The position numbers and the translations under genes are program-made. This document shows, piece by piece, positions 6,901-62,230 of a stretch of 64,000 bases of DNA. This DNA is from Patescibacteria group bacterium (GTDB lineage Bacteria; Patescibacteriota; Patescibacteriia; Patescibacteriales; JAQTRU01). The stretch lies in NCBI GenBank assembly GCA_028716725.1, contig JAQUPG010000006.1, positions 3,686 to 67,685 of the forward strand, read 5' to 3'. Below the pieces are notes generated by a model. That model did no database searches, was not told the origin of the DNA, and saw only the letters and a list, made by a program, of their open reading frames with translations. Each line of letters opens with the position of its first letter. Positions within the stretch are counted from its first letter, which is position 1.

Positions 6901-9900
6901 TTCAGGCCGACAGTCCCGCCCGATAAACTCATAGTATTAATATAGGCGCTAACAACGTAAACCTTTGATTCAAAATTAATTTCCTCGCTGGCGATTGAGG
7001 TTCCGGAACTCATCTTTAAAATATTTCTGCCTTCGGGCGGAGAAAATCCTAAGGCGGCTTTAGCTTCGGCCGCATCAGTTATTACCTTAAATTTACTTTC
7101 ATCCCAGATGCCGCCGCCGGCATTGCTCCAGCCGACCGGATAACCGTTGCCACCCGCCATCTCAAACCCGCCGTTAGATAAACTGATTATATCGCCGACC
7201 TGTTCCATCTCTCCCAGAGGATAATAATTATTGCCCAAATCCCCGCCCTCATAGCCGAACTTTGAATAGCCGGTTAAATTGCTGATGAGGTTGGGATCAT
7301 CGCCGTCTTTAAATATCTGCTCGGCTTTATCACCTGTAGAAGCAATAAAGTTGCCGCAATTGCCATTATCGTCAAAGCTATTGCAAAGCCCGATGTCAAA
7401 ACAAACATTATTGCCGTTTTTATCCTTAATATAACTACGGCAAGCCAGCCACTGGTCGCAGACTCTATTGGGCGAAACTTTTACCGGCGAACCGTTGGCA
7501 TTGTTTTCTCCGCTTAAGCTTTTCTGCGGTGAAACGCCGTTCTTATCGTCAATGGTCAGATTCGCATCAAAATTCAACCCGGCTAAACCACTCCCGCTAT
7601 TCTGAGTGCGCTCATTAAGCAAAATACATCCCTGCTCAAAATCAACCAGGCCTTTGCAGGTGGTCTTATCTAATTCCTGCTTTAACCTATATTCAACTAT
7701 GGCTTTTTTAAGATTTAACTCTCCTGTAATGGTGCAATCGTTCCGACCGGAAGAATTGTTAAAAAATATAACTAAACCATTGCCAGAAACAGCCACTGAA
7801 CTTGCGGGACTATCTAAGGTATTATCTTCTTTCAATAAACGTAAAGACTGACTAGAACAATTTTTTATCGAATTGGTTCCAGCTCCTATCCCTTTTAATA
7901 TATAAAGAGTAGACGGCTCAAGACTTACTTGATCCTTATCTTTATAACTAGCACCCGTGGCTGGTTTGCTTATCGGGTCAATATATTCGCTGCAGCCTCC
8001 TTGGGCTGCCGGGCAGGTTCCGGCCCAGCCGCCTTCCGGCTGATAAACAGTCTGGCCCTCCCCGCCATAACCAAAAGTTTTTAAATCACTAGCCGGGCAG
8101 GGAGTATCTTGAGTTTCCAGCTGGCAAGTTTTATAACATTTTTTATTAAGGCATAGGTTGCTGCTGCCACAATCTTCATTTTTAACGCAGGTAGTTGGAC
8201 TATCTACTAAACAATCTTGATTTTTTAAACAAATTTTTCCGTCGTTGTCGCCGCATCTTTTTACTTTTTTCTTATACCAGCCCCAGCCGGTTTCGCTAGC
8301 TCCGGCAATTTGGCGCCATTCGCAAACCATATCGCCCGGGTCCTTGAAGAAAGAATTGCCATTTCCTACTCCCCAGGCCTGGCAGCCTTCCCCTTCCTTA
8401 TCGCATAAAATCTCGTGGTATTTGTCCGGATTATTTTTCAGATAAACATCGCCGTAAACTATTTCCTCCCCATATCTATAGGGCGAGCCGAAACGGCTGC
8501 AGCCCTTTTCCGCCTTATTGCATTGCTTGGTTTTGTCATAAACCACGTAAGTAAGACTATCCGCGGCTATTGTCACGACCGGATCAGTGGCCGAAGCCGA
8601 AGTTCCGGCTTCACTGGAATTTTGAGTGTCAATCATTAATTCGCAGCCCACGGCCGACTCCTGGCATAACCCGCTGAAGTTATGGAGATAATGCGTATTT
8701 TTCGCCCTGTCCTTATACTGGCCGCAGCCCAGCATATAAAGAGGGAAAGCATTGCCGTTTATATCCTGGTTGCAGGAAGCGGGCGTTGTCCATGAATTTT
8801 TTATAAGGTAATAACGGTCGATTATTTCCGTTAATCTTATATCGTCAATAAAGAAATTCCCGTTAGCCGCTATCGTTAAGCTTTCATCGGCGCCGGCCTC
8901 ATGGTTAAGTTTGGCTAAATTGAATTTATATAATTTCCATTCGCTGGTTAAAGCATCGGTTAAAACAACTTCTTCTGTCCCATTGCTGCCAGCGAGACTG
9001 ATTGAGTTAAATTTAGTCGCCCCGTCCTCTTTGGCAATAAAGCTTAAAACATAAGACCTTCCTTTCTGGACAGAAGCACCAACGGTCTTAGCGGTGGAAT
9101 TGCCGGTTGTTCTTAAAGAGTTCCCGCCGACAGTTAAGGCCTCGCTGGCAATGCCGCCCGTCCAGTCCTGGGTATTGCCCGGAAAATCATTGTTCAAAAT
9201 AATTCTCATGTTGCTGCCGCGGTTGCCGCTATATTCCCGGCAACCGGATTGAAAGGCCCCGCAGCTTTTGCCTTCGCCCGGAATAGCCATATAAACGGTT
9301 GAGTCGTCAGTCCGGCGATAAGCATGGCAATTATCGCTGCAGGAAATTGTCCTGGTATATAAATGATAAGAAACTTCGCCAGCTTTATTATAAAATTGGC
9401 GGCAGTCCGGATTATAATTCGGGTCAGTAGCAGGCAGATTATATTTTGTGGCATCGCATTCCGAGCTGTCAGCTGAAGTTACTTTGGGGTCATCGCCCTC
9501 TTTTTGCAAGTTAAAAACCTTTAACTGATAACCGCTTTCATCGCTTCCTTCCCAGGTATAAAATTCGGCGCAGGTTGAATCCGGTTTTATACATTGCCTT
9601 AAATAAGTATAATATTCTTTGCCTTCCCCGCCCTTGGCCACTTCGTCTAAATTAGTAAATTCATCGCAGCCAACCGCGTCAGCACTGCAAGTTTTAGCTT
9701 CACCGGGGATAAGATATTCTACAAAACTGGAAGCAAAATTAGTTTCAGCCTGGACATAAGTGTCAAAGCCGTCGCATTCCTGCAGGCAATAATCGCTAAT
9801 CGTAGTTTTAGCCGGAATGCTTATGCCGTCCGCCACTCCCGTATAGGCCTCGCAGCCGACATCAGCCGGCCGGCAGGTGCCTACAAACTTATTGCAAAGG

Positions 9901-14533: not shown

Positions 14534-15755
14534 AGTCTATTATGCTTTCTCTTTTTATTATTTCTTCATCAGCTAAAAAATTCATAGACAGCGAAGCAAC
14601 CGCGGCTAAAACGAACATCCATTGAATATTAAAAAATGGCAGAAGAAGCAGAACAAAAATAAGCATAAAGCTCTTGCCGAACTGAACCGCCATTTCATGG
14701 ATAACGGTATATTCGTCAATATAATGGCCTTGGTCAGCCGTTCTCTCATAATTTAAAACGTCAAAAGGCGTCCGGGCAAAAATTCTGGCTAAATTATGAT
14801 AGGTTGAGGTGATAAAAATCTGAAAAGCGGTAGCGATAAAAATTTTAATAATCCAGCCTAAAGCGTAAAATATGCTGCCATACTTTAGCATCTTATTTTT
14901 GTTGCCCTTGTCGGCAAAACGGCCGACCGATAATTGCAAAAATATCGTTATGACAACAATTAAAGAAGATAAAGCCCCGACTTGAAAATAATTTCCGGAT
15001 AAAAGCTCCCAGATAAAAATCGGCCAAATAATAGTGCTAATTATGCTTTCCGCTCCGTCTCCGAAATAAGCCAGGACGGCTTTCCGGCGGCGGCGGGAAA
15101 AAAATTCTCTCCAGGTTTGTAAGTAACTCCAGGAAAAAATTTCTTTAGTTTTCGGCAAAGTGGCAAAAGGAATTAAGGATATAAAAAACGTTAAAATAGC
15201 GATTAAAAATAAAATGTCATAGCTGTAATGAGTTAAAATCCAGCCGGCCAGCAAAGGCATTACCGCCCCGATGGCGATTGTCGTTGCCCCCATTAAACCC
15301 AGTTGCTTTGCCCGGTTGCTTTTACTCGTAAATTTAGCCAAATCGGTATGGAGAGGAATCCAGTACATTAAACGGTTAAGGGTTAAGAAAAATACGGACA
15401 AAATTAGAAAAAAAATTATTTCTTTATAGCTCCACAACCATTCTGGCATTTTGGTGCCACGGTCAATAAGATAAAATATAAAATAAAAAGCTGCCCCCCA
15501 GACTATGCTTATCCTGAGCGACCGCCGTAATCCCACTTTATCTAAATATCTGGCCCCCCAGGCCACGGTTGCGCCATAAAGCAAATTCCCGATTAAGTAA
15601 TAATAAATAACCTTATTTAAATCAAAATTAAATAATTTGTATAAAAAAATAGGCAGAAATAATCCCAGCAAGCCGTCCGAAATCCATAAAACCATCCGAC
15701 CTGAATAAAGAGAAACAAACCCCTGGGAAATTCTGCCTTTAAAATATTTAAACAT
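14532..15755 (-). CDS. MFS-type transporter
   Basis: 407 aa with about 12 hydrophobic helices and a central charged loop (FFSRRRRKAV). General MFS look only. Confidence 0.6.
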   Translation of the reverse strand: MFKYFKGRISQGFVSLYSGRMVLWISDGLLGLFLPIFLYKLFNFDLNKVIYYYLIGNLLYGATVAWGARYLDKVGLRRSLRISIVWGAAFYFIFYLIDRGTKMPEWLWSYKEIIFFLILSVFFLTLNRLMYWIPLHTDLAKFTSKSNRAKQLGLMGATTIAIGAVMPLLAGWILTHYSYDILFLIAILTFFISLIPFATLPKTKEIFSWSYLQTWREFFSRRRRKAVLAYFGDGAESIISTIIWPIFIWELLSGNYFQVGALSSLIVVITIFLQLSVGRFADKGNKNKMLKYGSIFYALGWIIKIFIATAFQIFITSTYHNLARIFARTPFDVLNYERTADQGHYIDEYTVIHEMAVQFGKSFMLIFVLLLLPFFNIQWMFVLAAVASLSMNFLADEEIIKRESIID

Positions 15756-17114: not shown

Positions 17115-17559
17115 TAAATTGTTAAATTGTTAATCTGGAATTGGTAAATTTAATAAGGGAATTTAATTCTTTTGGCAGTTTATCCAATTCGCAAAAAATG
17201 AAATTATATTCTCTGTCACTCAACAAATTCCGCACCCTAGATTTTTCATTCCAATCCAAAGATTCCTTAATCGACCCATAGCTATAGCGATAAAATTTTA
17301 TCTTATCTTTCTTACCATATCGGCCGAATCCTTCCGCGATATTAGCCGAAATTGAATCTACCGCCCTGACAAACTGCTTGCCAACCGTGTCTTTTTCAAA
17401 ATAATTCCAGCCAATTACAATTTTCCAAACGTAATTAGATAAGTTAAAGGAAATTCTATAAGCGGAAATGTTATTTAACTTTAAATAATTGATCCCCTCC
17501 ATAATCAATTTGCGATAGAAAAATATAGCAATGAAATAATTTAATAATTTAACAATTTA
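17115..17559. mobile_element. putative IR-bounded cassette carrying the four-helix-bundle gene
   Basis: Perfect 14-bp inverted repeat taaattgttaaatt (17115-17128) / aatttaacaattta (17546-17559) fills the whole rtcB-to-leuS spacer around the gene. Confidence 0.3.
17122..17502 (-). CDS. four-helix-bundle protein (23S rRNA intervening-sequence protein family)
   Basis: SISANIAEGFGRYGKKDKIKFYRYSYGSIKESLDW is the family core as I recall it. The track start at 17508 is TTG; the ATG at 17502 (MEGINYL) is preferred. Confidence 0.75.
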   Translation of the reverse strand: MEGINYLKLNNISAYRISFNLSNYVWKIVIGWNYFEKDTVGKQFVRAVDSISANIAEGFGRYGKKDKIKFYRYSYGSIKESLDWNEKSRVRNLLSDREYNFIFCELDKLPKELNSLIKFTNSRLTI

Positions 17560-24215: not shown

Positions 24216-24644
24216 ATTCAAATGCTTCAAATTTAGTTATATGGAAAAAGTTGCCCATAAGGAATTATCCTATAAGATAACTGGGTTATTATTTAAAACG
24301 CATAAAGAATTAGACCGCTTTAGAAACGAAAAGCAATATGCCGATTATTTTGAAGAATTGCTAAAGCAAGCAGGAATAAAATATGTCCGTGAGTATAAAT
24401 TTGAAGATCAACAATATGGCCAAGGAAGAGTTAGATGTATATGTGATTTTATAATAGACGACAAAGTTATTTTGGAATTTAAAGCGAAAAATTTTATTAC
24501 CAAAGAAGATTATTATCAGACTAAAAGATATCTAATAACATTAAACTTACAATTAGCCATTATAGTTAATTTTAGACAGGTGAGATTGGCGCCGAAGAGA
24601 GTTTTAAATAGTAACTTCTTAAAAAATATTTGAAGCATTTGAAT
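24216..24644. mobile_element. putative IR-bounded cassette carrying the GxxExxY gene
   Basis: Perfect 17-bp inverted repeat attcaaatgcttcaaat (24216-24232) / atttgaagcatttgaat (24628-24644). The right arm contains the gene's stop codon. Imperfect extension on both sides ends in aattcaaat / atttgaatt. Confidence 0.35.
24241..24633 (+). CDS. GxxExxY-family protein (PD-(D/E)xK-like, IVS-associated family)
   Basis: 130 aa. NEKQYADYFEELLKQAGIKYVRE then CDFIIDDKVILEFKA and LAIIVNF match the family pattern as I recall it. Confidence 0.7.
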   Translation: MEKVAHKELSYKITGLLFKTHKELDRFRNEKQYADYFEELLKQAGIKYVREYKFEDQQYGQGRVRCICDFIIDDKVILEFKAKNFITKEDYYQTKRYLITLNLQLAIIVNFRQVRLAPKRVLNSNFLKNI

Positions 24645-26794: not shown

Positions 26795-26825
26795 CCCCCT
26801 TGATAAAGGGGGCCAGGGGGATTTT
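26795..26825 (+). repeat. C/G hairpin plus G-rich tail element (family A)
   Basis: ccccctt-gata-aaggggg followed by ccagggggatttt. Other copies at 47779, 56034, 62022, 43138 and 34633. Confidence 0.85.
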
Positions 26826-26850
26826 AAAAGTTAAACCTCCCCTACCCCTC

Positions 26851-26871
26851 CCTGCCTACCGGACAGGCAGG
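26851..26871. repeat. CCTGCCT hairpin
   Basis: cctgcct-accggac-aggcagg. A related cctgcctg-tcgg-caggcagg lies at 30503-30522, after porB. Confidence 0.7.
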
Positions 26872-26898
26872 CTTTCGAAGGAGGGCATACATAATAAT

Positions 26899-27924
26899 AT
26901 GAAACTTTCTAATTTAGTTAAAACTTCTAACGGGGTGAAAAAGCTTCCCAAAATTTTAACAATAACTTTTCTCTCCATTTTAATTTTCCAAATGGTTTGT
27001 TTGATTATTTTACTGACGATCCCTAAAAAAACCCAGGCGGCTGACATAAGATTCAACCCGCAGGTTGAAATTCCTGGCTTGGAAGAAGAAGTTCAAAAGG
27101 ATGGGGGGGGATACTATGTCGGCACAGAAACAGAAGTAATGAAAGATGGTAAAAAAGTGAAAACATTCAGCAGCGACCTCTTGGGGAAATACATCCAGGC
27201 AATTTACAATTACGCCATCGGCATTGTCGGAATTTTAGCCGCCGTGGTTTTGATGTTCGGGGGAGTAATCTGGCTTACGGCCGGCGGCAGCCCGGAAAAA
27301 GTTAATGAGGCTAAGGCCTGGATTGGCGCATCTCTTTCCGGCCTAGTTTTGGTTTTATGCTCTTATATGATTTTAAATACCATTAATCCGGATTTAGTCA
27401 GCTTTAAGCCGATAGAAGTGCAAACTATTGAAAAAATGCCTGTAATGGGTTGCTGCGAATATAAGGAATGTGATGATAATATTACGGAACCGGACTGCAG
27501 AAAAAAGGAGGGATATATTGCCTGGCGGGAAGGAAGTATTTATACTTGCAATGCTGAAAATAAATGCGAAAAATCATGTTTTTGGATAACCCTTAGAAAT
27601 GATGAATATTGCAGAAGTATCGGGTATGAAATGGAGGGAACCAGCGAAATGTGCGGGATAGGGCAATTTGGAGCAGCTGCTTACTCTACGGGGGGAGAAT
27701 TCAAATCCGTTTGCTGTTGCAGCCATGGGAAAGTGGCTAATCCTTGCGAAGGCAAAAAAAATGGGGACGAATGCACTACAAGCGGAGGAGATAAAGGATA
27801 TTGTATGCATAATGCGTGCCATACTTGCAAGCCGGCAGGCACTACTTGCACTCAGTGGTTATATGGAAATAAAGAATGCTGTAACGGAGATTGCCAAGGA
27901 TTAAAAGACCCTAAATGTAATTAA
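26899..27924 (+). CDS. VirB2/TrbC-like pilin-domain protein with 22-Cys C-terminal domain
   Basis: Signal anchor ILTITFLSILIFQMVCLIILLTIPKKTQA. Two-helix hairpin IYNYAIGIVGILAAVVLMFGGVIWLTAGGSPEKVNEAKAWIGASLSGLVLVLCSYMIL. C-terminal 160 aa contain 22 Cys. The track start at 26800 (TTG) lies in repeat DNA, so the ATG at 26899 is preferred. Confidence 0.7.
   Translation: MKLSNLVKTSNGVKKLPKILTITFLSILIFQMVCLIILLTIPKKTQAADIRFNPQVEIPGLEEEVQKDGGGYYVGTETEVMKDGKKVKTFSSDLLGKYIQAIYNYAIGIVGILAAVVLMFGGVIWLTAGGSPEKVNEAKAWIGASLSGLVLVLCSYMILNTINPDLVSFKPIEVQTIEKMPVMGCCEYKECDDNITEPDCRKKEGYIAWREGSIYTCNAENKCEKSCFWITLRNDEYCRSIGYEMEGTSEMCGIGQFGAAAYSTGGEFKSVCCCSHGKVANPCEGKKNGDECTTSGGDKGYCMHNACHTCKPAGTTCTQWLYGNKECCNGDCQGLKDPKCN
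27202..27400 (+). repeat. conserved pilin-hairpin coding block, copy 1
   Basis: Direct repeat of 28170-28368. By eye about nine of ten bases are identical, with most differences at third codon positions. Confidence 0.85.
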
Positions 27925-27935
27925 TAATTTAACAA

Positions 27936-28994
27936 ATGCCGAAAAAATTCCCAAAAATTTTTACTGTTATTTTTCTGCTTTTAATAATCCTGCAAACAGG
28001 CGCTTTTGTTTTTCCCATTTTATTTTATACCCCGGCAAAAGCGGCGGCCAAATGGGCTAACCCGGTAGACCAAATAAAAATACCCGGGCTAAAATTTTCC
28101 GAGCCAAAAGCCTGCCCGGATGACCCGTTAAAAACCTGCGTCCCCTGGATAGGAGAATATATCGGCGGCATTTACAATTACGCCATCGGCATTGTCGGGA
28201 TTTTGGCGGCCGTGGTTTTGATGTTCGGGGGAGTAATCTGGCTCACGGCCGGAGGCAGCCCGGATAAGGTTAATGAAGCCAAGGCCTGGATCGGCGCGTC
28301 TTTATCCGGCTTGGTTCTAGCTTTATGCTCTTACATGATTTTATACCAAATTAATCCTGACTTGGTTAAACTTAATCCTTTGAAAGTAAATGTCGTTACT
28401 GAAAAAAAGATAGAAGGTGCGGCTGCCCAAAAATGCCAATGGGGAGTTGGTTCATGGAATGAATTTTATGCAGATACTTGCAAAGATATGGCAAAAAAAG
28501 GAAATTGGGAAAATCCCAATACCTGGGAAGTAAAAACAGAAGAAAATTGCGAAGGGACTAAACCACAGGGAAACTATGTTCTCTGTTGCTGCCCTCCCTG
28601 TCCGGCAGAATGCCAAGCAGTAGGCTGTAATTACTGCGCGGCCTGCGAAAATTGTACAACTCTTACAATTCCCACAAAAAATGGTACACAACTAACTGCA
28701 CCTTTGGCCCAAAAACTAGCAAATGCTTTTAGCCAGAAAAATAACTGGCGAGTAACCGAAGCTTGGCCGCCAAGCCAGGGCCATGCCGATTCCTGCCATT
28801 ACAATGGCATGTGCGCTGACATTAATTTTTCTAACGGCTCTAAAGATCCAACCGAGGTAAAAGAATTATTCGACATATTAACCGCCGCCGGATTAAATGC
28901 AACATATGAATCCGATGATTGTAGCGCCTATACGGGAGTAACATGCGACAAAGGCTCGGCCTATACCAACGCCCAACATTTTCACGTAAAATAA
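27936..28994 (+). CDS. VirB2/TrbC-like pilin-domain protein with Cys-rich linker and LAS-type zinc peptidase-like C-terminal domain
   Basis: Carries the same hairpin as the upstream gene. The C-terminus has SCHYNGMCAD (H-x6-D) and a terminal HFH (H-x-H), which together form the LAS/peptidase M15-type zinc signature. 16 Cys after the hairpin. Confidence 0.7.
   Translation: MPKKFPKIFTVIFLLLIILQTGAFVFPILFYTPAKAAAKWANPVDQIKIPGLKFSEPKACPDDPLKTCVPWIGEYIGGIYNYAIGIVGILAAVVLMFGGVIWLTAGGSPDKVNEAKAWIGASLSGLVLALCSYMILYQINPDLVKLNPLKVNVVTEKKIEGAAAQKCQWGVGSWNEFYADTCKDMAKKGNWENPNTWEVKTEENCEGTKPQGNYVLCCCPPCPAECQAVGCNYCAACENCTTLTIPTKNGTQLTAPLAQKLANAFSQKNNWRVTEAWPPSQGHADSCHYNGMCADINFSNGSKDPTEVKELFDILTAAGLNATYESDDCSAYTGVTCDKGSAYTNAQHFHVK
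28170..28368 (+). repeat. conserved pilin-hairpin coding block, copy 2
   Basis: See 27202-27400. Confidence 0.85.
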
Positions 28995-29556: not shown

Positions 29557-30489
29557 ATGTTAAAAAAAATAAAAGCTAGCCAAGGTTTAAATATCAAGGC
29601 AAGCAAATACCCCCTCTCCCCCGGCCACCGGGCTTGCGCCGGTTGCGGGCAGATGATTGCGGCCCGGACCGTAGCCGAGGCCTTGGGGCCTGACGTTATT
29701 ATCGCCAACGCGACAGGATGTTTAGAAGTTACGACTACGCCTTATCCGGAAAGCGCCTGGGGCATGCCCTGGATCCATTCTCTTTTTGAAAACGCTTCGG
29801 CCGTTGCTTCCGGAATTTTGGCCGCCCTAAAACAAAAAGGTGATAAAAAAACCAAGGTGATTGCCCAAGCCGGAGACGGCGGTACGTTTGACATTGGCAT
29901 CGGTTTAATTTCCGGCATGTGGGAAAGGGGCGAAAATATTTTATACATTTGCTACGACACCGAAGCTTATTCCAATACCGGCATCCAGGCGTCCGGCGCG
30001 ACTCCCTGGGCAGCCAATACCACGACCACCCCGGCCGGCATTGGCCCGACGATTGACGCCATTGGTTCGCACCAGAGAAAAAAAGACATGATTGCCATTG
30101 CCTTGGCGCACGGCCTGCCTTACGTTGCCCAGTCTACTTCCGGGTTTACCGAAGATATCGCCCGCAAAGTAAAAAAAGCCCTAGCCATACAAGGCCCGAG
30201 CTATATCCAAATTTTAACTCCTTGCGTCCCGGGTTGGAATATTGACCCCAGCCAAACCATAAAAACGGGAAAATTAGCGGCCCAAACCGGACTTTACCCT
30301 TTGCTGGAATATGAAAACGGCCAGCTGACAAACGTTTCTAAAATCCCGACGCCGGAGCCAAAAGTGGAAGAATATTTAAAACTACAAGGCAGATTTAAAC
30401 ATTTATTCAAGGACCAGAAAGGCAAAGAGCAAATTGAATATATCCAGAAACTGGCTAACCAAAATATTGCCAAGTATGGGTTAAAATAA
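29557..30489 (+). CDS. porB: PFOR beta subunit (TPP-binding)
   Basis: GHRACAGCG, GDGGTFDIG and TEAYSNTG motifs; 310 aa. Confidence 0.85.
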   Translation: MLKKIKASQGLNIKASKYPLSPGHRACAGCGQMIAARTVAEALGPDVIIANATGCLEVTTTPYPESAWGMPWIHSLFENASAVASGILAALKQKGDKKTKVIAQAGDGGTFDIGIGLISGMWERGENILYICYDTEAYSNTGIQASGATPWAANTTTTPAGIGPTIDAIGSHQRKKDMIAIALAHGLPYVAQSTSGFTEDIARKVKKALAIQGPSYIQILTPCVPGWNIDPSQTIKTGKLAAQTGLYPLLEYENGQLTNVSKIPTPEPKVEEYLKLQGRFKHLFKDQKGKEQIEYIQKLANQNIAKYGLK

Positions 30490-33376: not shown

Positions 33377-35206
33377 TTATCGTTTTAAAATTTTCACGAA
33401 TGCTTCCGGCGGAATTTCCACGCTCCCCTTGCCGGCGGCCATCATTTTCTTTTTGCCCTTTTTCTGCTTTTCCAGTAATTTTCTTTTCCGGCTGACGTCC
33501 CCGCCGTAAAGCTTGGCCGTCACGTCCTTGCGCATGGCGGAAAGCCTTTCCGCGGCAATGACTTTCCCGCCAATGGCGGCCTGCATTTTTAAGACAAACA
33601 TCTGCTTCGGCAAAGTTTCCTTTAAAGTTTCCACGATTTTTTTGCCTTCCCGAAAAGCTTCATCGCGATAAACGATCATGGACAGAGCTTCAACTATGTC
33701 TTCGGCCACTAGAATATCCATCTTCACCACATCGGCCGGGCGGTAATCCAGATAATCATAATTAATGGAAGCGTAGCCGGAGCTGATACTTTTTATCTTA
33801 TCATAAAAGTCGGTTAAAATCGCCGCCATGGGTATTTCATAATGGAGAATAACCGTGTCTTTTTCCAAATATTCCGTATTTTTATAAGCGCCCCTCTTGT
33901 CCTGCGCTAATTCCATGACCGCGCCTATATAATCTTTTGGGGTAACAATGTCCAAAGATACCCACGGCTCTTCCACCTGCTTTATTTCCGCCTGGTCCGG
34001 CAATTTTTGCGGAGTGCGGATAATTATTTCCTCGCCGTTTGTCTTATGGACTTTATAAGCCACGCTCGGCAAGGTTACGATTAAAGCCAGGTTATATTCC
34101 CGCCGCAGCCTTTCCTGAAAAATTTCTAAATGCAGAAGCCCGAGAAAACCGCACCGAAAACCAAAACCCAAAGCTTCGGAACTTTCCGGCTCATACGTCA
34201 GGGCGGCATCATTTAATTTTAATTTTTCCATGGCTTCCCGCAAGTCCTGAAAATCGCTGCCTTCCCTAGGGAAAACCCCGGCAAAAACCATGGGCTTCAC
34301 CTCTTTATAGCCATGCAAGGGCTCTAAACCGGACTCAACGGATTTAAGATTGGAAACCGTGTCGCCCACCCGGCACTCGCTGACATTTTTAAAACCGGTA
34401 ACAATATAACCAATTTCCCCGGCTTCCAGTTTCCCCGTGGATTTATACTCGGGCTTAAATATGCCGATATCCAGGGCCTCACTTCTGGCTTTTGTGGCCA
34501 TTAAATAAATTTTATCCCCCTTTTTTATTTCCCCGTCCATAACCCTGACATGCGCCACCACTCCCCGATATTCATCATAATTGGAATCAAAAATTAAAGC
34601 CCGCAGAATTTCAATACCTCTCCCCTTTTGTTCCCCTCCTCTAATTAGGGGAGGGGTTAGGGGTGAGGTCCCGGGTGCTGGCACGTGTTTAACCACCGCT
34701 TCTAAAATCTCCTCTACCCCCTGACCAGTTTTGCCAGAAGCTAAAATTATTTCTTTTTCATTACAGCCAATTAATTTTATAATTTCCCCTTTGGTTTTTC
34801 CGATATCGGCCGCGGGCAAATCTATTTTATTAACCACCGGAATGATTGCCAAATCCTGTTCCATGGCCAAAAAAAGATTAGCCAGAGTCTGGGCCTGAAT
34901 TCCTTGGGTCGCGTCCACTAATAAAACCGCTCCTTCCACCGCGGCTAACGAGCGGGAAACTTCATAGGAAAAATCAACATGGCCAGGAGTGTCTATCAAA
35001 TTCAAAACATAGCCATTATATTCCATAGTCACGGGCTGGAGCTTGATTGTTATTCCCCTTTCCCTTTCTATATCCATTCTGTCCAGAAACTGTTCTTTCA
35101 TTTTTCTTTTTTCAATCGTCCCGGTAATTTCCAGCATCCGATCCGCCAAAGTTGACTTGCCGTGGTCAATATGCGCGATAATGCAGAAATTTCTAATATT
35201 GGTCAT
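33377..35206 (-). CDS. lepA: elongation factor 4 (LepA)
   Basis: IIAHIDHGKSTL, DTPGHVDF and NKID G-motifs, plus the LepA C-terminal region; 609 aa. Confidence 0.95.
   Translation of the reverse strand: MTNIRNFCIIAHIDHGKSTLADRMLEITGTIEKRKMKEQFLDRMDIERERGITIKLQPVTMEYNGYVLNLIDTPGHVDFSYEVSRSLAAVEGAVLLVDATQGIQAQTLANLFLAMEQDLAIIPVVNKIDLPAADIGKTKGEIIKLIGCNEKEIILASGKTGQGVEEILEAVVKHVPAPGTSPLTPPLIRGGEQKGRGIEILRALIFDSNYDEYRGVVAHVRVMDGEIKKGDKIYLMATKARSEALDIGIFKPEYKSTGKLEAGEIGYIVTGFKNVSECRVGDTVSNLKSVESGLEPLHGYKEVKPMVFAGVFPREGSDFQDLREAMEKLKLNDAALTYEPESSEALGFGFRCGFLGLLHLEIFQERLRREYNLALIVTLPSVAYKVHKTNGEEIIIRTPQKLPDQAEIKQVEEPWVSLDIVTPKDYIGAVMELAQDKRGAYKNTEYLEKDTVILHYEIPMAAILTDFYDKIKSISSGYASINYDYLDYRPADVVKMDILVAEDIVEALSMIVYRDEAFREGKKIVETLKETLPKQMFVLKMQAAIGGKVIAAERLSAMRKDVTAKLYGGDVSRKRKLLEKQKKGKKKMMAAGKGSVEIPPEAFVKILKR
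34633..34669 (+). repeat. family A hairpin plus G-rich tail inside lepA
   Basis: cccctcctct-aatt-aggggagggg (10-bp stem with one G-T pair) plus ttaggggtgaggt. On the minus strand it encodes TSPLTPPLIRGGEQKGRG. Confidence 0.85.
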
Positions 35207-41645: not shown

Positions 41646-41676
41646 GGTCGACTTCAATAGTCGGCCTTTTTTATTT
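41646..41676 (+). terminator. rho-independent terminator
   Basis: ggtcgact-tcaat-agtcggcc (one G-T pair) followed by ttttttatttttt. Confidence 0.65.
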
Positions 41677-43128
41677 TTTAAAAATCTCGTTTAATTTCTC
41701 CCTTAAAGTTTTGCCCTCCAGCTCTAATTTTATTTCTTTAATTTCTATACTATCATCAATTTCATCATCGGCTTTAAGGCCTGGAATAGAAATTATAAAA
41801 CTATCTTTATTCCATTCGCGATAAGCATTATTCAGATCAAATTCAGCTTGGGCTGTTTTCCAGCCGTCTTTTTCTTCCGGAATTCTGTAGCCAGCTAAAA
41901 TATAGTTTATGCCGATTGGGTTAGCGGAAAAGCTTTCGTCCACTTTTTTAAAATTCGGGTCCAGTAAATTTCCCTGGTTAAAGCTAAAAACTCCGCTGCC
42001 GGATAAAATTACATCTCCCTTGGCAATTTTTATTTCGCTAACTTTATTTTCGAACATCAAGCTAAATTGCCGGTAAGTGGAGCTGATTTCCAATTCTTTA
42101 TCACCTACTTTAATATTTTGTAAACTGCCCGGATTTATAGTCTGGGCGTTGATCAGCTGGCTGTCAGTATAAAGAGAAATATTTTTGTCATTTTCATTTT
42201 CCAGCCAGATTCTGTTTAAAAAAGCCACTCTACTTTGGCTGGTAGTTATTTTTTTGGTAATGACATCGTCGTTGGCGCGCAGCTCTACTTTATAAACCCC
42301 TTCGGGCAGATTGCTTTCAAAAAAATTCAGGCTTCTCACCTCTTTCATCTCGCCGTTATCGGTTTTTACGCCGTCATCGTCCAAATGCCGGCTGGTGATC
42401 AGCTGGTCGCCGTAATATAAATTAACATCAACGGCGTCGCTGTCTTTATTCTGGTTTAAATCCAAGAAGGTAAAAGTAAAATCTAAGTCTTCATTCTTAA
42501 GATAAGTATAAAATTGATAAGTGCCGCGCAAAGAGTAATTAATTTCCTGCTTAACCTTACCGGCTTCATAATTCTTAATTAAAAATTCTTTTTTAAAATC
42601 ATAATTATACAAAGCGATTTCCTCGGCTGGCGGCAAATTAGCTAAAAAGTTTTCAATTGTGTCATATTTTTTTTCTCTCTGGAGTAACATCACGCCGTCT
42701 TTTTCTACTACATTCCAGATTAAAGCCAGTTGATCAATGATTTTATTTTCTATGGGCTGCAATTGGTAGCGCCAAATAATTTTGTCCATTAACACTCCGG
42801 CTTCTACCAAAGGCCGCTCGCTTTCATTTTTGTATTCTAAAGTAAGTTTAGCTTTATTAAATTTTCTTGGCGTGCGCAAGGAAAAATAAACCGGGTCCCC
42901 GATTATTTTCTGGCTTCCATCTTCTATGGGTTCCTCTCTTTCCTCCGGGGTTAATTGCCCGATGAATTTATTGGCTCCGGCCAGCTGATAATCACCATTG
43001 GTAAAATCATAAAAATAAGTGATTTTCCCGCTTGGCACAATCGCCAGATACAAAAAAAAGACCACGGCCAAAGCTAAAACCAACCATAAAAATATCCTTA
43101 ATTTAACTATCCCGCTTATTTTTTTCAT
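41671..43128 (-). CDS. membrane-anchored hypothetical protein (485 aa)
   Basis: N-terminal TM LRIFLWLVLALAVVFFLYLAIV, then a beta-rich extracytoplasmic region. No family recognised. Confidence 0.75.
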   Translation of the reverse strand: MKKISGIVKLRIFLWLVLALAVVFFLYLAIVPSGKITYFYDFTNGDYQLAGANKFIGQLTPEEREEPIEDGSQKIIGDPVYFSLRTPRKFNKAKLTLEYKNESERPLVEAGVLMDKIIWRYQLQPIENKIIDQLALIWNVVEKDGVMLLQREKKYDTIENFLANLPPAEEIALYNYDFKKEFLIKNYEAGKVKQEINYSLRGTYQFYTYLKNEDLDFTFTFLDLNQNKDSDAVDVNLYYGDQLITSRHLDDDGVKTDNGEMKEVRSLNFFESNLPEGVYKVELRANDDVITKKITTSQSRVAFLNRIWLENENDKNISLYTDSQLINAQTINPGSLQNIKVGDKELEISSTYRQFSLMFENKVSEIKIAKGDVILSGSGVFSFNQGNLLDPNFKKVDESFSANPIGINYILAGYRIPEEKDGWKTAQAEFDLNNAYREWNKDSFIISIPGLKADDEIDDSIEIKEIKLELEGKTLREKLNEIFKK

Positions 43129-43137
43129 AAACTTCTA

Positions 43138-43170
43138 CCCCGCCCTTCGCGAAGGGCGGGGTGAGGTATT
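43138..43170 (+). repeat. family A-like hairpin plus tail
   Basis: ccccgccctt-cgcg-aagggcgggg plus tgaggtatt. Confidence 0.8.
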
Positions 43171-43254: not shown

Positions 43255-43725
43255 ATGATTACAATCAGAAAAGCCAAGGTGAAAGACTTGCCCAAGACAG
43301 CAAAATTAGGAGCCGCTCTCCTTAAACACCATAAAAAATTTGATAAATATTTTTCGCCGGCAGAGGGCATAGAAAAAATTTATAAAAAATTCTTTAAAAA
43401 AAACATTTATTCCCCCAAGGGCTTATTGTTAATCGCGGAAGAAAAAGGAAAAATTATCGGCTACGCGCTCGCGACAATCAGAAAAAGACCATCTGTTTTT
43501 AAATTTCGTAGAATAGGAAATATTGATGACGTCTATATAATCCCGGCTTACCGGCGCTTAAGGATAGCAAAACAATTCTTAGAAAAAATATTCCAATGGT
43601 TTAAAATAAAAAAAATAAAAGACATAGAAATGCAAGTCCATATTAAAAACGAAATCGGCAAAGCCGCTTGGAGTAAATATGGATTTAAAGCTTTCACAGA
43701 ACGGAGAAGGTTAAAACTTAAATAA
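43255..43725 (+). CDS. GNAT-family N-acetyltransferase
   Basis: 156 aa. IGYALATIR..DDVYIIPAYRRLRIAKQFLEKI..WSKYGF is a typical GNAT core. Confidence 0.8.
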   Translation: MITIRKAKVKDLPKTAKLGAALLKHHKKFDKYFSPAEGIEKIYKKFFKKNIYSPKGLLLIAEEKGKIIGYALATIRKRPSVFKFRRIGNIDDVYIIPAYRRLRIAKQFLEKIFQWFKIKKIKDIEMQVHIKNEIGKAAWSKYGFKAFTERRRLKLK

Positions 43726-47778: not shown

Positions 47779-47809
47779 CCCCCTTTCGAAAAGGGGGTTG
47801 GGGGGATTT
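47779..47809 (+). repeat. family A hairpin plus G-rich tail
   Basis: cccccttt-cga-aaaggggg plus ttggggggattt. Confidence 0.85.
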
Positions 47810-56033: not shown

Positions 56034-56084
56034 CCCCCTTGATAAAGGGGGTTGGGGGGATTTAAAGGGGGACGAGGGGGATTT
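56034..56084 (+). repeat. family A hairpin with duplicated G-rich tail
   Basis: ccccctt-gata-aaggggg, ttggggggattt, then aaagggggacgagggggattt. The hairpin is identical to the copy at 26795. Confidence 0.85.
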
Positions 56085-56532
56085 ATTCTCCCCCTTCTTT
56101 TTCTTTTGTAAAATATTCCTTAGCGCCAACCAGCACCTTCATCGCCCGCATTATGTTAAACAATTCATTGGATCTCGCATTTTCATCAAAGTCATTTAAA
56201 TAACCTTTTTCATATATATAATTTACTCTATGCAAAGCATACCTGAGCGAAGTCAGCATATCAAAAACATCTTTTCTCTCGCACTTTTTAGCTAAATCAG
56301 AAATTTCCTCTACTTCGGCAAACATTTTTTCCACTCTTTCTTGGGTAAAAATTTTATCAGAATTAAGATACAAATCTTTAAATTCAACTTTCTTGGTAGC
56401 TTCTTTCAACCCGCCGCAAATTTCTTCCATAAATACAAACAGCCTTTCCAGCCTTTCCTCAACTTCTTTTTCCATATCATCCTCTTTTCTCTCCTTAAAC
56501 CCTCCTGTATTATCGGCATTTTCTCCAAACAT
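56083..56532 (-). CDS. hypothetical helical protein (149 aa)
   Basis: Clean ORF, acidic and helical. Its 3' end overlaps the family A repeat. No family recognised. Confidence 0.55.
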   Translation of the reverse strand: MFGENADNTGGFKERKEDDMEKEVEERLERLFVFMEEICGGLKEATKKVEFKDLYLNSDKIFTQERVEKMFAEVEEISDLAKKCERKDVFDMLTSLRYALHRVNYIYEKGYLNDFDENARSNELFNIMRAMKVLVGAKEYFTKEKEGGE

Positions 56533-57574: not shown

Positions 57575-58195
57575 TTATTTAATATATTGATCAAAATCTT
57601 TAATAGTAGTGACAATAATTTCTACATTGTTATTAAATTTAATTTTATTTTGTGGGATATTAACAACAGTTTTATAACCAAAAACAAGCATGGGTTTGAC
57701 GAATTTATTTGGGTTCTCTCCGAATTTTAAATTTCTCACTAATTTACAATGTTTTAGTAAAGCAATCAAAATATCAGTGTTATCAAAACCATTTATGTAT
57801 AGTGAACCATTATTAAACATTACGTTACCCGCCCAATTTTTTGCTTCCACTCCATAATACGAGTTACCTTTTGTGATTAAAAAATCCAGATCGCCATAGA
57901 CAGTCTCTATGTGTTGGACGTATTTAATCCATAATTTTTTTAGTTTATTCTCTATTTGTGTTTCCAAATTAAGCCCCTTCCCATAAGAATCTTGCCTGTT
58001 TATACAATATTCGATAATAAAAAGAACAAATACCCCAACGGCGCCCAGCACCAACCCTACAACAAAATTTGACAAGTTATTATTAAAAAAGAAATATCTT
58101 CCTGCAAAATAAGCGAAAAGAATTAAAATAACTACAATAACATATCTGTATAATTCATAATTCCTGATTTTACTTTTTAGATAATTATTCGGCAT
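57575..58195 (-). CDS. membrane-anchored NERD (nuclease-related) domain protein
   Basis: Two N-terminal TM helices, then GKGLNLETQIENKLKKL...YGDLDFLIT...YGVEAKNWAG (D..D/ExK-type NERD core). Confidence 0.6.
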   Translation of the reverse strand: MPNNYLKSKIRNYELYRYVIVVILILFAYFAGRYFFFNNNLSNFVVGLVLGAVGVFVLFIIEYCINRQDSYGKGLNLETQIENKLKKLWIKYVQHIETVYGDLDFLITKGNSYYGVEAKNWAGNVMFNNGSLYINGFDNTDILIALLKHCKLVRNLKFGENPNKFVKPMLVFGYKTVVNIPQNKIKFNNNVEIIVTTIKDFDQYIK

Positions 58196-58200
58196 GAAAT

Positions 58201-58443
58201 TTATTTTTTTATAATCTTAAGCTTTTCCGCCCGGGATAATTTTTTTATTCGGCATTCTTCCTTTTGCGCCAGAGATTTATTTTTTTTCTTAACAGAATAA
58301 ACTAATTTTACCGGCCGCCGGCCTTTCGTATATTTAGCTCCCAAAACTGAATCATTATGCTCCTTTATTCTGCGTTTAAGGTTGGTTGTTACGCCAGTAT
58401 AAAAACTCTTGTCCTTGCATTGCACTATATATACATACCACAT
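58201..58443 (-). CDS. GIY-YIG nuclease family protein (UPF0213-like)
   Basis: WYVYIVQCKDKSFYTGVTTNLKRRIKEHN; 80 aa. Confidence 0.85.
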   Translation of the reverse strand: MWYVYIVQCKDKSFYTGVTTNLKRRIKEHNDSVLGAKYTKGRRPVKLVYSVKKKNKSLAQKEECRIKKLSRAEKLKIIKK

Positions 58444-61957: not shown

Positions 61958-62021
61958 ATTTGTTATTATAACACATCGGATAAAAAGAAAAGAGAGCGGC
62001 TAATCCACCCCTTTCAAATTG

Positions 62022-62164
62022 CCCCCTTTCGTTAAAGGGGGTTAGGGGGATTTTTCTCCCCCTTGCTAAGGGGGAGGTAGGAGGGGGTAGGATGATTAGA
62101 GAAAAGAACAAAAAGAAGAACTCAACTCACCTCACCCCAACCCTCTCCTTAGCAAGGAGAGGGG
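62022..62164. repeat. cluster of three family A hairpin elements
   Basis: (1) cccccttt-cgtt-aaaggggg plus ttagggggattttt. (2) ctccccctt-gct-aagggggag plus gtaggagggggtagg. (3) In the opposite orientation, cctcaccccaa plus ccctctcctt-agc-aaggagaggg. Confidence 0.85.
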
Positions 62165-62230
62165 GAATAAAAAGAAAAGGAAGTGGAAAAACCACCCCCT
62201 AATTCATGCTTAATACTTCAGGCTTTATGC

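Follow-up and report, generated by a model that had tools for sequence, protein, structure and literature searches.

Intrastrand triplex repeats of the BoxC/PIT class in a Patescibacteria genome, and a DUF559 nuclease as their possible partner

A stretch of 64,000 nucleotides from a Patescibacteria group bacterium (contig JAQUPG010000006.1 of assembly GCA_028716725.1, positions 3,686 to 67,685; hereafter the window) carries a family of short repeats, family A, each of which consists of a hairpin and a G-rich tail. Family A is very probably a member of the class II purine-motif intrastrand triplex repeats, i.e., the BoxC/PIT/TM class (PIT, potential intrastrand triplex), in which the tail serves as a third strand. 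Then, how do such repeats come to be scattered in genomes? The best explanation overall, to which we give a probability of about 0.55, is that class II triplex repeats are non-autonomous elements resembling repetitive extragenic palindromic (REP) sequences and miniature inverted-repeat transposable elements (MITEs), with a nuclease of the DUF559 family as their partner. Because the element class itself is already known, the novelty is modest. The class is now seen to reach the ultra-small genomes of Patescibacteria and many other phyla with a near-identical C5T3 type, and the bracketing of DUF559 genes by these repeats, E. coli ycjD included, offers a concrete candidate for the long-open BoxC/PIT question as well as a possible substrate for DUF559, one of the commonest nuclease families of "unknown function".

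The repeat family in the window

A sequence-only reading of the window had described a dispersed family of eight copies. Counting confirms that such a family exists: the bare pattern CCCCCTT-N(2-6)-AAGGGGG is found five times in the window, always on the + strand (26795, 47779, 56034, 62022, and 62058), while 100 dinucleotide shuffles of the window contain no match at all, and thus family A is real and well above chance. Since a covariance model cannot encode a third strand, a dedicated triplet scanner combined with shuffles was chosen instead, the scanner being built to recognize a pyrimidine arm, a loop, a purine arm, a linker, and a mirrored third strand. When at most one faulty triplet is allowed, it finds six class II motifs in the window versus a mean of 0.03 per block shuffle. 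A looser scan, which tolerates one stem fault and includes the class I order, gives 10 motifs versus 0-1 in shuffles, and its four extra matches are 56065-56095, an overlapping alternative at 62035-63, and two weak ones inside lepA. The copies in the window are as follows.

26795..26822, + strand: class II motif, CCCCCTT-GATA-AAGGGGG-CCA-GGGGGAT, 7 nt past the stop of the alpha gene of pyruvate:ferredoxin oxidoreductase (PFOR)
26836..26885, - strand: decayed inverted partner of 26795 with tails inward, CCCTCCTT-CGAAAG[CCTGCCTGTCCGGTAGGCAGG]GAGGGG-TA-GGGGAGG, interrupted by the nested 21-nt palindrome CCTGCCTGTCCGGTAGGCAGG (26853-26873)
34617..34669, + strand: decayed triplex-type element inside lepA, CCTCTCCCC-TTTTGTT-CCCCTCCTC-TAAT-TAGGGGAGGGG-TTA-GGGGTGAGG, its G-rich strand antisense to lepA
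47779..47808, + strand: class II motif, CCCCCTTT-CGA-AAAGGGGG-TTG-GGGGGATT, 8 nt past the stop of a VIT-family gene and convergent with rpoC
56034..56061, + strand: class II motif, CCCCCTT-GATA-AAGGGGG-TTG-GGGGGAT, between orf149 and rpoB
56065..56095, + strand: class I-type arrangement (third strand, purine arm, pyrimidine arm), AAGGGGGA-CG-AGGGGGAT-TTATT-CTCCCCCT
62022..62052, + strand: class II motif, CCCCCTTT-CGTT-AAAGGGGG-TTA-GGGGGATT
62056..62089, + strand: class II motif with nine perfect triplets, CTCCCCCTT-GCT-AAGGGGGAG-GTAG-GAGGGGGTA
62128..62163, - strand: class II motif of a type like E. coli TMECO, CCCTCTCCTT-GCT-AAGGAGAGGG-TTG-GGGTGAGGTG

The six clean copies have perfect stems of 7-10 bp, 3' arms composed of A and G only, and two loops of 3-4 nt each; they lie within the ITxF criteria of Holder 2015 (stem 6-15, loops 1-6 nt), and the decayed copies at 26836-26885 and in lepA lie outside them. 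Except for the in-frame lepA copy, the family occupies five intergenic loci within 36 kb, and no copy is found in 10 kb beyond the window. Two inverted pairs are present (26795/26836 and 62056/62128), both with tails inward. In the cluster at 62022-62164, the + strand reads CCCCCTTTCGTTAAAGGGGG-TTA-GGGGGATT and then CTCCCCCTTGCTAAGGGGGAG-GTAG-GAGGGGGTA, and the - strand reads CCCTCTCCTTGCTAAGGAGAGGG-TTG-GGGTGAGGTG.

Among the eight copies listed in the sequence-only reading, those at 26795, 47779, 56034, 62022, 62056, 62128 (on the - strand), and in lepA are retained, the one at 43138 is removed, and the decayed copy at 26836-26885 (- strand) had been overlooked. The identity of the hairpins at 26795 and 56034 is borne out. 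A duplicated tail had also been noticed at 56034; an extra segment does exist there, at 56065-56095, and it is itself the class I-type motif. The rejected candidate, 43138-43161, is a perfect 24-nt palindrome, CCCCGCCCTTCGCGAAGGGCGGGG, which has C in the "purine" arm and no mirrored tail, and it lies in a divergent intergenic region between ORF (open reading frame) 41671-43128 (- strand) and a GNAT gene at 43255 (+ strand).

A third strand that mirrors the purine arm

What is the G-rich tail, which had so far been left as an unexplained appendix of the hairpin? A unit can be read as five parts on one strand: a pyrimidine arm, a loop of 3-4 nt, a complementary purine arm, a linker of 2-4 nt, and a mirror segment of G and T(A); d(CCCCCTTTCGTTAAAGGGGGTTAGGGGGATT) is a one-strand oligonucleotide form of it. 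In single-stranded DNA, the first and second arms would pair as a Watson-Crick hairpin, and the third segment would fold back into the major groove of this hairpin through reverse-Hoogsteen G*G-C, A*A-T, and T*A-T triplets. A Watson-Crick fold has no need of a mirror repeat, while a purine-motif (reverse-Hoogsteen) triplex does. Moreover, we know of no templated copying process that yields a mirror repeat, which is non-complementary and of the same polarity.

To compare sequence types, hairpins with an all-purine 3' arm were gathered from loci of many phyla. In every type the tail mirrors the purine arm in such a way that G stays G and A becomes A or T, as in the following examples.

CCCTCCCTTT-GAA-AAAGGGAGGG-CTG-GGGAGGGATT
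CCTCTCCC-TTGAC-GGGAGAGG-CTA-GGTGAGGG
CCTTCTCCCCTC-GGC-GAGGGGAGAAGG-TCA-GGATGAGGGGTG (12/12 triplets correct)

The hairpin is strand-symmetric, and the tail is mostly confined to one side. A count over 132 distinct arm/tail combinations gives G-G triplets in 680 cases, A-T in 213, A-A in 163, and others in 23; the rule is obeyed by 1056 of the 1079. If hairpins with variant arms and a G-rich downstream flank are taken, 45 of 56 match their own tail, while 2000 swaps of tails between hairpins gave 21.7 matches on average and 31 at maximum. Thus, the covariation of three parts indicates that the triple fold, not merely the hairpin, is conserved. The mixture of A and T opposite A further indicates that it is the G-rich strand that folds, because only the A form would be required if the C-rich strand folded by a pyrimidine motif. 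From a comparative point of view, such compensatory changes suggest that what matters in cells is the triplex rather than the hairpin alone.

Relation to BoxC, PIT and TMECO

To our knowledge, BoxC/PIT elements have been known since the 1990s and their triplex has been well documented in vitro, while their function, partner protein, and mode of spread have never been found. BoxC was first seen in E. coli and was rediscovered as PIT by Hoyne et al. 2000 (Holder et al., 2015; PMC4666352). The design of the window units matches that of the class II intrastrand triplex motif in the latter study, whose E. coli representative, TMECO, is CCCTCNCCC N3-6 GGGNGAGGG N3 GGGNGAGGG with TTA or CCG as the second loop. 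According to circular dichroism (CD) and nuclear magnetic resonance (NMR), single-stranded TMECO DNA forms a very stable triplex with Tm of 70-82 C, its 18 imino signals fit a triplex and not a quadruplex, and it goes back to a duplex when the complement is added (PMC4666352). TMECO is always intergenic, occurs in inverted A+B pairs, marks unusually variable loci, and shows no strand bias in E. coli (13 vs 10); the genes flanking it share no common function (PMC4666352). We find the E. coli 36-mer CCCTCTCCCCTTTGGGGAGAGGGTTAGGGTGAGGGG in 5416 of 5426 complete E. coli genomes, at a median of 17 places, all of them unannotated.

The window units and BoxC/PIT/TMECO are alike in the class II order, in the linker of about 3 nt (TTA, CCG etc.), and in the mirrored G/T(A) strand, and also in being intergenic, multi-copy, arranged in inverted pairs, and variable among lineages. 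Most of the window copies, however, are of another sequence type, C5T2-3 / A2-3G5 / G5AT1-2 with 7-9 triplets, which does not match the TMECO consensus; the window copies are members of the class and not of the TMECO subtype. The copy at 62128-62163 (CCCTCTCCTT...AAGGAGAGGG...GGGTGAGGTG) comes near the consensus and differs at two triplets; compared with an E. coli TMECO, CCCTCTCCCC-TTT-GGGGAGAGGG-TTA-GGGTGAGGGG, its changes are mainly triple-compensatory ones from C-G*G to T-A*T. The host here is a member of Patescibacteria, a group unmentioned in the main text of Holder et al., and likewise unmentioned there are copies in frame within genes, palindromes nested in loops, and an association with DUF559 (PMC4666352). 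H-DNA shares with the window units the purine-motif reverse-Hoogsteen triplets and the mirror repeat of a purine tract. Unlike H-DNA, a unit of the window type supplies its pyrimidine partner in cis; one strand suffices, and no long homopurine-homopyrimidine duplex is required.

Distribution, gain, loss and nesting

If one genome per species is scanned for exact C5T2-3 hairpins with the tail, more than 119 stretches appear among the matches listed, where about 0.003 would be expected by our own estimate. The matches listed come from Patescibacteria, Omnitrophota, Nitrospinota, Nitrospirota, Ignavibacteria, Myxococcota, Desulfobacterota, Chloroflexota, Spirochaetota, Bacteroidota (among them isolates of Algoriphagus and Cyclobacterium), and Gammaproteobacteria (among them Acinetobacter, Chromatium, and Lysobacter), and several genomes among them supply many contigs. 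In about 390 kb of DNA from relatives of the window genome and from other bacteria, which had been fetched via an unrelated protein, there are essentially no copies but two weak matches. An exception is a lineage represented by L127, L129, and L130, whose RpoB is about 90% identical to that of the window: an array of the same type lies upstream of its rpoB, and the unit at 56034-56061 is positionally homologous to this array.

The elements are dispersed and lineage-specific, and they have been gained, lost, and nested between close relatives. The spacer between porA and the pilin gene holds an inward-tailed inverted pair both in the window and in the closest relative (L172, LepA 89% identical), while in a more distant one (L173, LepA 78% identical) it is short and contains no element. 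In L172, the orthologue of the 26795 copy has received a 35-nt GC-rich palindrome in its first loop (around 15640-15675), whereas the orthologue of 26836-26885 is intact and reads CCCTCCTT-CGA-AAGGAGGG-GTAG-GGGAGGTT. A 31-nt element, TCCGCCGACGCTAAAGCTTTGGTGGACAAGC, likewise sits in a loop of a unit of L129 (around 8150-8180). Therefore, loops of the units seem to attract other small palindromic repeats, as palindromes are nested in loops or arms in the window, L172, and L129. Near window 47850 there is also a stretch, TTTATTCCGCCGACGC, which is related to the nested palindromes. Viewed as putative MITEs, the elements form inverted pairs, and other genomes contain a form in which a DUF559 gene stands between a unit and an inverted unit; a target-site duplication or a clean empty/filled junction is not seen. 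Probably, this is a dispersing selfish repeat that acts at the level of DNA.

Not every structure around the repeats is due to their movement. The 2.7 kb between porA and porB was considered as an insertion bounded by elements, and this was rejected: C-runs at 29610 belong to the porB coding sequence, and two genes resembling T4SS-pilin lie between the PFOR alpha and beta genes in the window (26800-28994), in L172 (13569-15546), and in L173 (15585-17614). Such conservation of pilin genes within the PFOR locus in relatives indicates no recent insertion.

The units also disturb the data from which genomes are read, i.e., they break short-read assemblies and create false ORF ends. Three Logan short-read contigs (L001, L002, and L178) end inside the cluster 62022-62164. 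Artificial ORF ends had been suspected in the sequence-only reading, and some are indeed so; the TTG start of ORF 26800-27924 falls inside an element. The window stems from a Patescibacteria MAG (metagenome-assembled genome); its LepA is 100% identical to an NCBI entry, and its left part matches the NCBI contig JAQTQT010000001.1 of GCA_028712785.1. This contig appears to end near window 47670, about 100 nt before the unit at 47779, and hence the assembly behind the window must have been joined in another way.

Copies inside lepA

The copy proposed within lepA proved to be real. Compared with Aquifex LepA and LepA structures, LepA of the window is longer by 15 residues (TSPLTPPLIRGGE..GRGIE), which separate the G domain from domain II, and this insertion coincides exactly with the decayed element at 34617-34669 (lepA, 33377-35206 on the - strand), which codes for the extra peptide TSPLTPPLIRGGEQKGRG. 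Clean class II motifs are found in frame at the same protein position in two other genomes.

L173, 10540-10575, antisense to lepA: CCCTCTCCTT-TTA-AAGGAGAGGG-TTG-GGGTGAGGTA
L175, 963-998, antisense to lepA: CCCTCTCCTT-TAT-AAGGAGAGGG-GTA-GGGTGAGGTC

The closest relative, L172, has no element at this position of lepA. This patchy occurrence points to events of insertion or replacement, which are tolerated in a surface linker. The units add Pro/Ser/Gly-rich peptides to real proteins such as LepA.

In 120 LepA proteins of Patescibacteria, this linker has a length of anywhere from 7 to about 50 residues and often contains repeat-derived peptides. Located between "PAP" and "LRALIFDS", it is a hot spot of insertion in Patescibacteria, whose LepA proteins range from 571 to 653 aa, and its peptides come from at least three families of small repeats: the triplex type (TSPQPSPLKGEG), "ALADK/ALVDK", and "VETRHGASL/VETNGRSS".

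Orientation and gene context

In the window, the intergenic copies are located directly past stop codons, and four loci have + strand copies whatever the direction of the neighboring genes; seven of eight copies had thus been said to share one absolute orientation. This bias comes from only about five independent loci and is not significant, and it is gone among 304 class II motifs in loci of other genomes from many phyla: 65 of these are tandem-sense, 62 tandem-antisense, 38 convergent, and 19 divergent to their neighbors, and the G strand is on the majority coding strand in 155 cases against 149 on the minority one. The units prefer neither strand with respect to transcription or, by proxy, to replication. 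Divergent promoter regions are avoided, as seen from the 38 convergent and 19 divergent cases. The absence of strand preference contradicts the claimed orientation bias, fits an element at the DNA level, and argues against a terminator or an RNA element.

A DUF559 nuclease gene bracketed by inverted units

Which protein, then, accompanies the repeats? When Pfam was applied to the 150 ORFs lying closest to clusters of the element in the loci of many phyla, DUF559 was the commonest family (6/150). The layout is a recurring one. Upstream, a unit whose G strand is also the gene strand ends 7-34 nt ahead of the DUF559 start codon, and downstream, a unit on the opposite strand begins 0-26 nt past the stop codon or overlaps it; the gene, encoding 120-136 aa, is thus bracketed by inverted units with their tails inward. 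This layout occurs in Patescibacteria relatives, Omnitrophota, Nitrospirales, Bacteroidota, and Gammaproteobacteria; the individual cases are L127, L129, and L130 of the Patescibacteria relatives, the Omnitrophota metagenome-assembled genome (MAG) L013, the Nitrospirales chromosome L020, Algoriphagus L097, Thalassocella L010, and an unclassified MAG, L089. One-sided versions are found in L028, L062, and L051. Both-sided flanking is observed for 4 of 8 DUF559 genes versus 1 of 764 other ORFs of the same loci (Fisher p = 2e-8), and flanking on either side for 7 of 8 versus 73 of 764. The element-free control loci contain no DUF559 gene.

A reciprocal test was done with six DUF559 proteins picked by protein similarity alone, whose loci were fetched afterward: three of the Bacteroidota type (P0177, P0229, and P0239) and three of the YcjD type from Enterobacter asburiae, Klebsiella quasipneumoniae, and Franconibacter. 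In every one of the six loci, a unit on the opposite strand either overlaps the stop codon or lies within 17 nt of it, and the upstream unit is present in all three Bacteroidota loci. It is to be noted that the type of the flanking units agrees with that of the host, being C5T2 in Bacteroidota and TMECO in enterobacteria. The Enterobacter locus has a type B unit over the DUF559 stop and, 11 nt later, a type A unit, which equals the A+B pairing described by Holder (PMC4666352). On a chromosome of the Bacteroidota type, a 145-nt doublet unit is directly repeated on both sides of the DUF559 gene and once again past the next gene. In Klebsiella quasipneumoniae (L202/L203, 1555-1750), three tandem units of about 66 nt (TCTCCCTCAGCGAGAGGGAGAAAGAGAGTCC...) are located between the TMECO over the DUF559 stop and a second TMECO.

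As for the protein itself, the DUF559 profile matches PDB 3hrl, an "endonuclease-like protein", with E = 7e-33, and weakly matches 3r3p of the I-Bth0305I homing-endonuclease family (E = 0.006); DUF559 belongs to a common fold family with the Vsr-like / EDxHD I-Bth0305I and shares the E-x-D-G-x-x-H core. Both I-Bth0305I (PDB 3r3p) and DUF559 are encoded by small selfish-looking genes, whereas I-Bth0305I is located in a group I intron of a phage and possesses an additional DNA-binding region (PMC3239194), and the DUF559 genes are free-standing, encode 117-136 aa, and are bracketed by triplex repeats. Among the papers that could be searched, none links DUF559 or ycjD with BoxC, PIT, or triplex repeats. 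In the window, orf149 (56083-56532) takes the slot held by DUF559 in L129, and it has no detectable family.

E. coli ycjD

The DUF559 gene of E. coli K-12 is ycjD. The gene ends in CCCTCTCCCTGA, which is followed by a decayed purine arm, and an intact TMECO, one of 23 in K-12, is located 168 nt downstream. Of 5426 E. coli genomes, 3377 carry ycjD. The gene replaces the eefRABCD operon in groups A, B1, C and two other lineages, with at least two independent ycjD/eefRABCD replacements inferred (PMC12817139). In the fabI-ycjD-sapF region of K-12 (L179, 16041-16828; L197), ycjD, the decayed unit, and TMECO together occupy the eefRABCD slot. A simple indel of a ycjD cassette was considered and discarded, for the slot in O157:H7 holds a TetR/RND operon, which is eefRABCD (PMC12817139). 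Repeated replacement would fit a ycjD segment that is recombinogenic or mobile.

How might the repeats spread?

The mechanism that we propose starts from the unit / DUF559 gene / inverted unit, which would be the gene-carrying form of the family. Inward-tailed pairs, such as 26795/26836 and 62056/62128 in the window and the A+B pairs in E. coli, and solo units would be gene-less derivatives, which might be mobilized or maintained in trans. The nuclease, which is of the Vsr/EDxHD fold and the PD-(D/E)XK type, would act at the folded or extruded structure, and its action might start copying that depends on recombination or repair. Such a scheme would be parallel to that of RAYT and REPIN with another protein fold and another DNA structure. 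REP/REPIN-RAYT and the triplex units are alike in that short structured intergenic repeats occur as solo copies and inverted doublets in tens of copies, that one small gene of a nuclease type stands between inverted copies of the repeat type native to that genome, and that repeat numbers are lower in E. coli lineages lacking the gene. They differ in that the triplex unit is a triplex-capable mirror repeat while REP is an imperfect palindrome with a GTAG head, and in that the candidate partner is predicted to have the PD-(D/E)XK/Vsr-like DUF559 fold while the partner of REP is an HUH Y1 transposase. In this form, namely with a DUF559 nuclease in place of RAYT, the suggestion of a cognate enzyme made in the sequence-only reading may be right. 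We put DUF559 as the cognate enzyme of the repeats at a little short of an even chance. A step further, and still more tentative, is one hitherto unrecognized system spanning phyla, a functional counterpart of RAYT-REPIN, in which triplex repeats would be the cis elements, the DUF559 endonuclease would be the trans partner, gene-less pairs and solo units would be non-autonomous progeny, and recognition of folded three-stranded DNA instead of sequence would account for the covariation. As a lead only, sites of integrons (attC) resemble the triplex units as recombination-type sites that rely on the folding of one strand rather than on primary sequence, and an attC-like alternation of unit, DUF559, unit, Macro-domain gene, and unit is seen in Bacteroidota; unlike the case of integrons, no integrase is present, and the proposed fold is a triplex and not a bulged hairpin.

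Several points weigh against a mobile repeat with DUF559 as its partner. Neither a DUF559 gene nor a transposase is encoded in the 64-kb window, according to Pfam scans of 39 ORFs that cover most of the long ones. No target-site duplication or precise empty/filled junction can be defined in the comparisons of lepA and the porA-pilin spacer, where the sequences are too diverged for a duplication to be read. The loci of the DUF559 analysis had for the most part been chosen because they carry the element; the six reciprocal cases amount to about five independent loci from two clades, and the three enterobacterial ones show the downstream unit only. In an evenly spaced sample of E. coli genomes, TMECO-like places number 17 at the median with ycjD (n=37) versus 5 without (n=22; p = 6e-10), and this correlation is confounded by phylogroup; lineages without ycjD still hold 1-13 copies. 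In E. coli, the triplex was undetected in vivo by dimethyl sulfate (DMS) footprinting, PIT elements had no in vivo phenotype (Hoyne and Maher, 2002, as reported there), and no link of PIT elements to mobile elements was seen (PMC4666352). Finally, the flanking pattern equally fits homing of a DUF559 gene into pre-existing inverted pairs.

The last point leads to the main rival, which we regard as unlikely on balance, that DUF559 is only a homing-type gene inserting into inverted pairs, or a nuclease processing the structures, and that the repeats persist as neutral passengers or as structural DNA signals useful to the host: supercoil-absorbing or replication-pausing switches, or, as proposed by Holder et al., inducers of genome plasticity in their vicinity. 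The fold family of DUF559 does include a true homing endonuclease, and an inverted pair, once filled, would have exactly the unit / gene / unit layout. The persistence of the triplex rule in many sequence types and phyla speaks for selection on the fold; the conserved position of the array upstream of rpoB between lineages with RpoB about 90% identical, the excess of convergent over divergent sites, and the published findings that polymerase stalls in vitro and that regions around E. coli copies are more variable (PMC4666352) are further points in favor of this rival. Nevertheless, genomes of close relatives manage without the elements, nested insertions and decay are tolerated in the copies, the copies serve no particular class of gene or position in a consistent manner (a finding shared with Holder et al.), and the lack of an in vivo phenotype in E. 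coli (PMC4666352) counts against host use as well. A similar case of close genomes differing in the presence of the element is known between Salmonella and E. coli (PMC4666352). Moreover, homing alone leaves unexplained why a flanking unit always matches the dispersed type of its genome.

Might the repeats instead work in transcripts, as bidirectional intrinsic terminators or stem-loops stabilizing 3' ends, with the G-tail being incidental? The position of all intergenic window copies directly past a stop codon and the depletion in divergent promoter regions would suit such a role, and the hairpins are stable, with -7 to -9.8 kcal/mol as DNA (for the Watson-Crick part alone, because the tool models no third strand). 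A simple terminator/promoter scan marks one cluster, at 56065-56095, as terminator-like, while most units are not called and the terminator-like matches in the whole window number 35 versus 32 in shuffles; an Rfam scan of the whole window at the gathering threshold gives one tRNA only. The idea is nonetheless improbable. No U-tract is next to the stem because the tail intervenes, the orientation to the upstream gene is indifferent (65 vs 62), copies lie in frame inside lepA, and a Nitrospinota genome has the element after a separate terminator-like hairpin with a T-run. An RNA hairpin needs no tail that covaries with its arm, and according to earlier work, purine-motif triplexes do not form in RNA and PIT elements have neither promoter nor terminator activity in E. 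coli (cited in PMC4666352).

Mobilization by a RAYT (Y1 HUH) transposase, as for REP and bacterial interspersed mosaic elements (BIMEs), is a far poorer candidate. The likeness to REP/BIME pointed out before holds insofar as the repeats are short, palindromic, and intergenic and form solo copies, inverted pairs, and clusters, and the other palindromes nested in unit loops recall the insertion of insertion sequences into REPs. It fails in that no conserved GTAG/GGAG head or tetranucleotide is located 5' of the hairpins, and the mirror-repeat tail is foreign to the REP model. The RAYT-like transposase envisaged earlier is not to be seen: no Y1 transposase is encoded in the window, and Y1_Tnp is not among the 25 commonest families beside the 150 sampled elements, where DUF559 leads. 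Least credible are G-quadruplex-forming sequences: four runs of G5-6 spaced by 2-7 nt at 56047-56080, upstream of rpoB, do constitute a canonical G-quadruplex motif, but this motif is made by two adjacent triplex-type units, a single unit has two G-runs only, the mirror rule is followed, even at A/T positions, by variants whose runs are interrupted (e.g., GGGAGAGG), for which a quadruplex has no need, and the imino signals of the E. coli element are consistent with a triplex (PMC4666352).

Other small elements in the window

Amid the housekeeping genes of the window are four ORFs, 17122-17508, 24241-24633, 57575-58195, and 58201-58443, which are small, stand-alone, nuclease-like or otherwise "selfish-looking"; they comprise a 23S_rRNA_IVP/bAvd-like gene, PDDEXK_3, NERD, and GIY-YIG, and none of them is directly flanked by a triplex unit in the window. 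A second short repeat, AAAAGAAAAG-(A/G)GA(G/A)(C/T)GG...CCACCCC, adjoins the three-copy cluster of triplex units at 61990-62011 and 62178-62200. Both of its copies are terminator-like on the - strand, with a stem plus a T-run, and one of them is located directly past secF.

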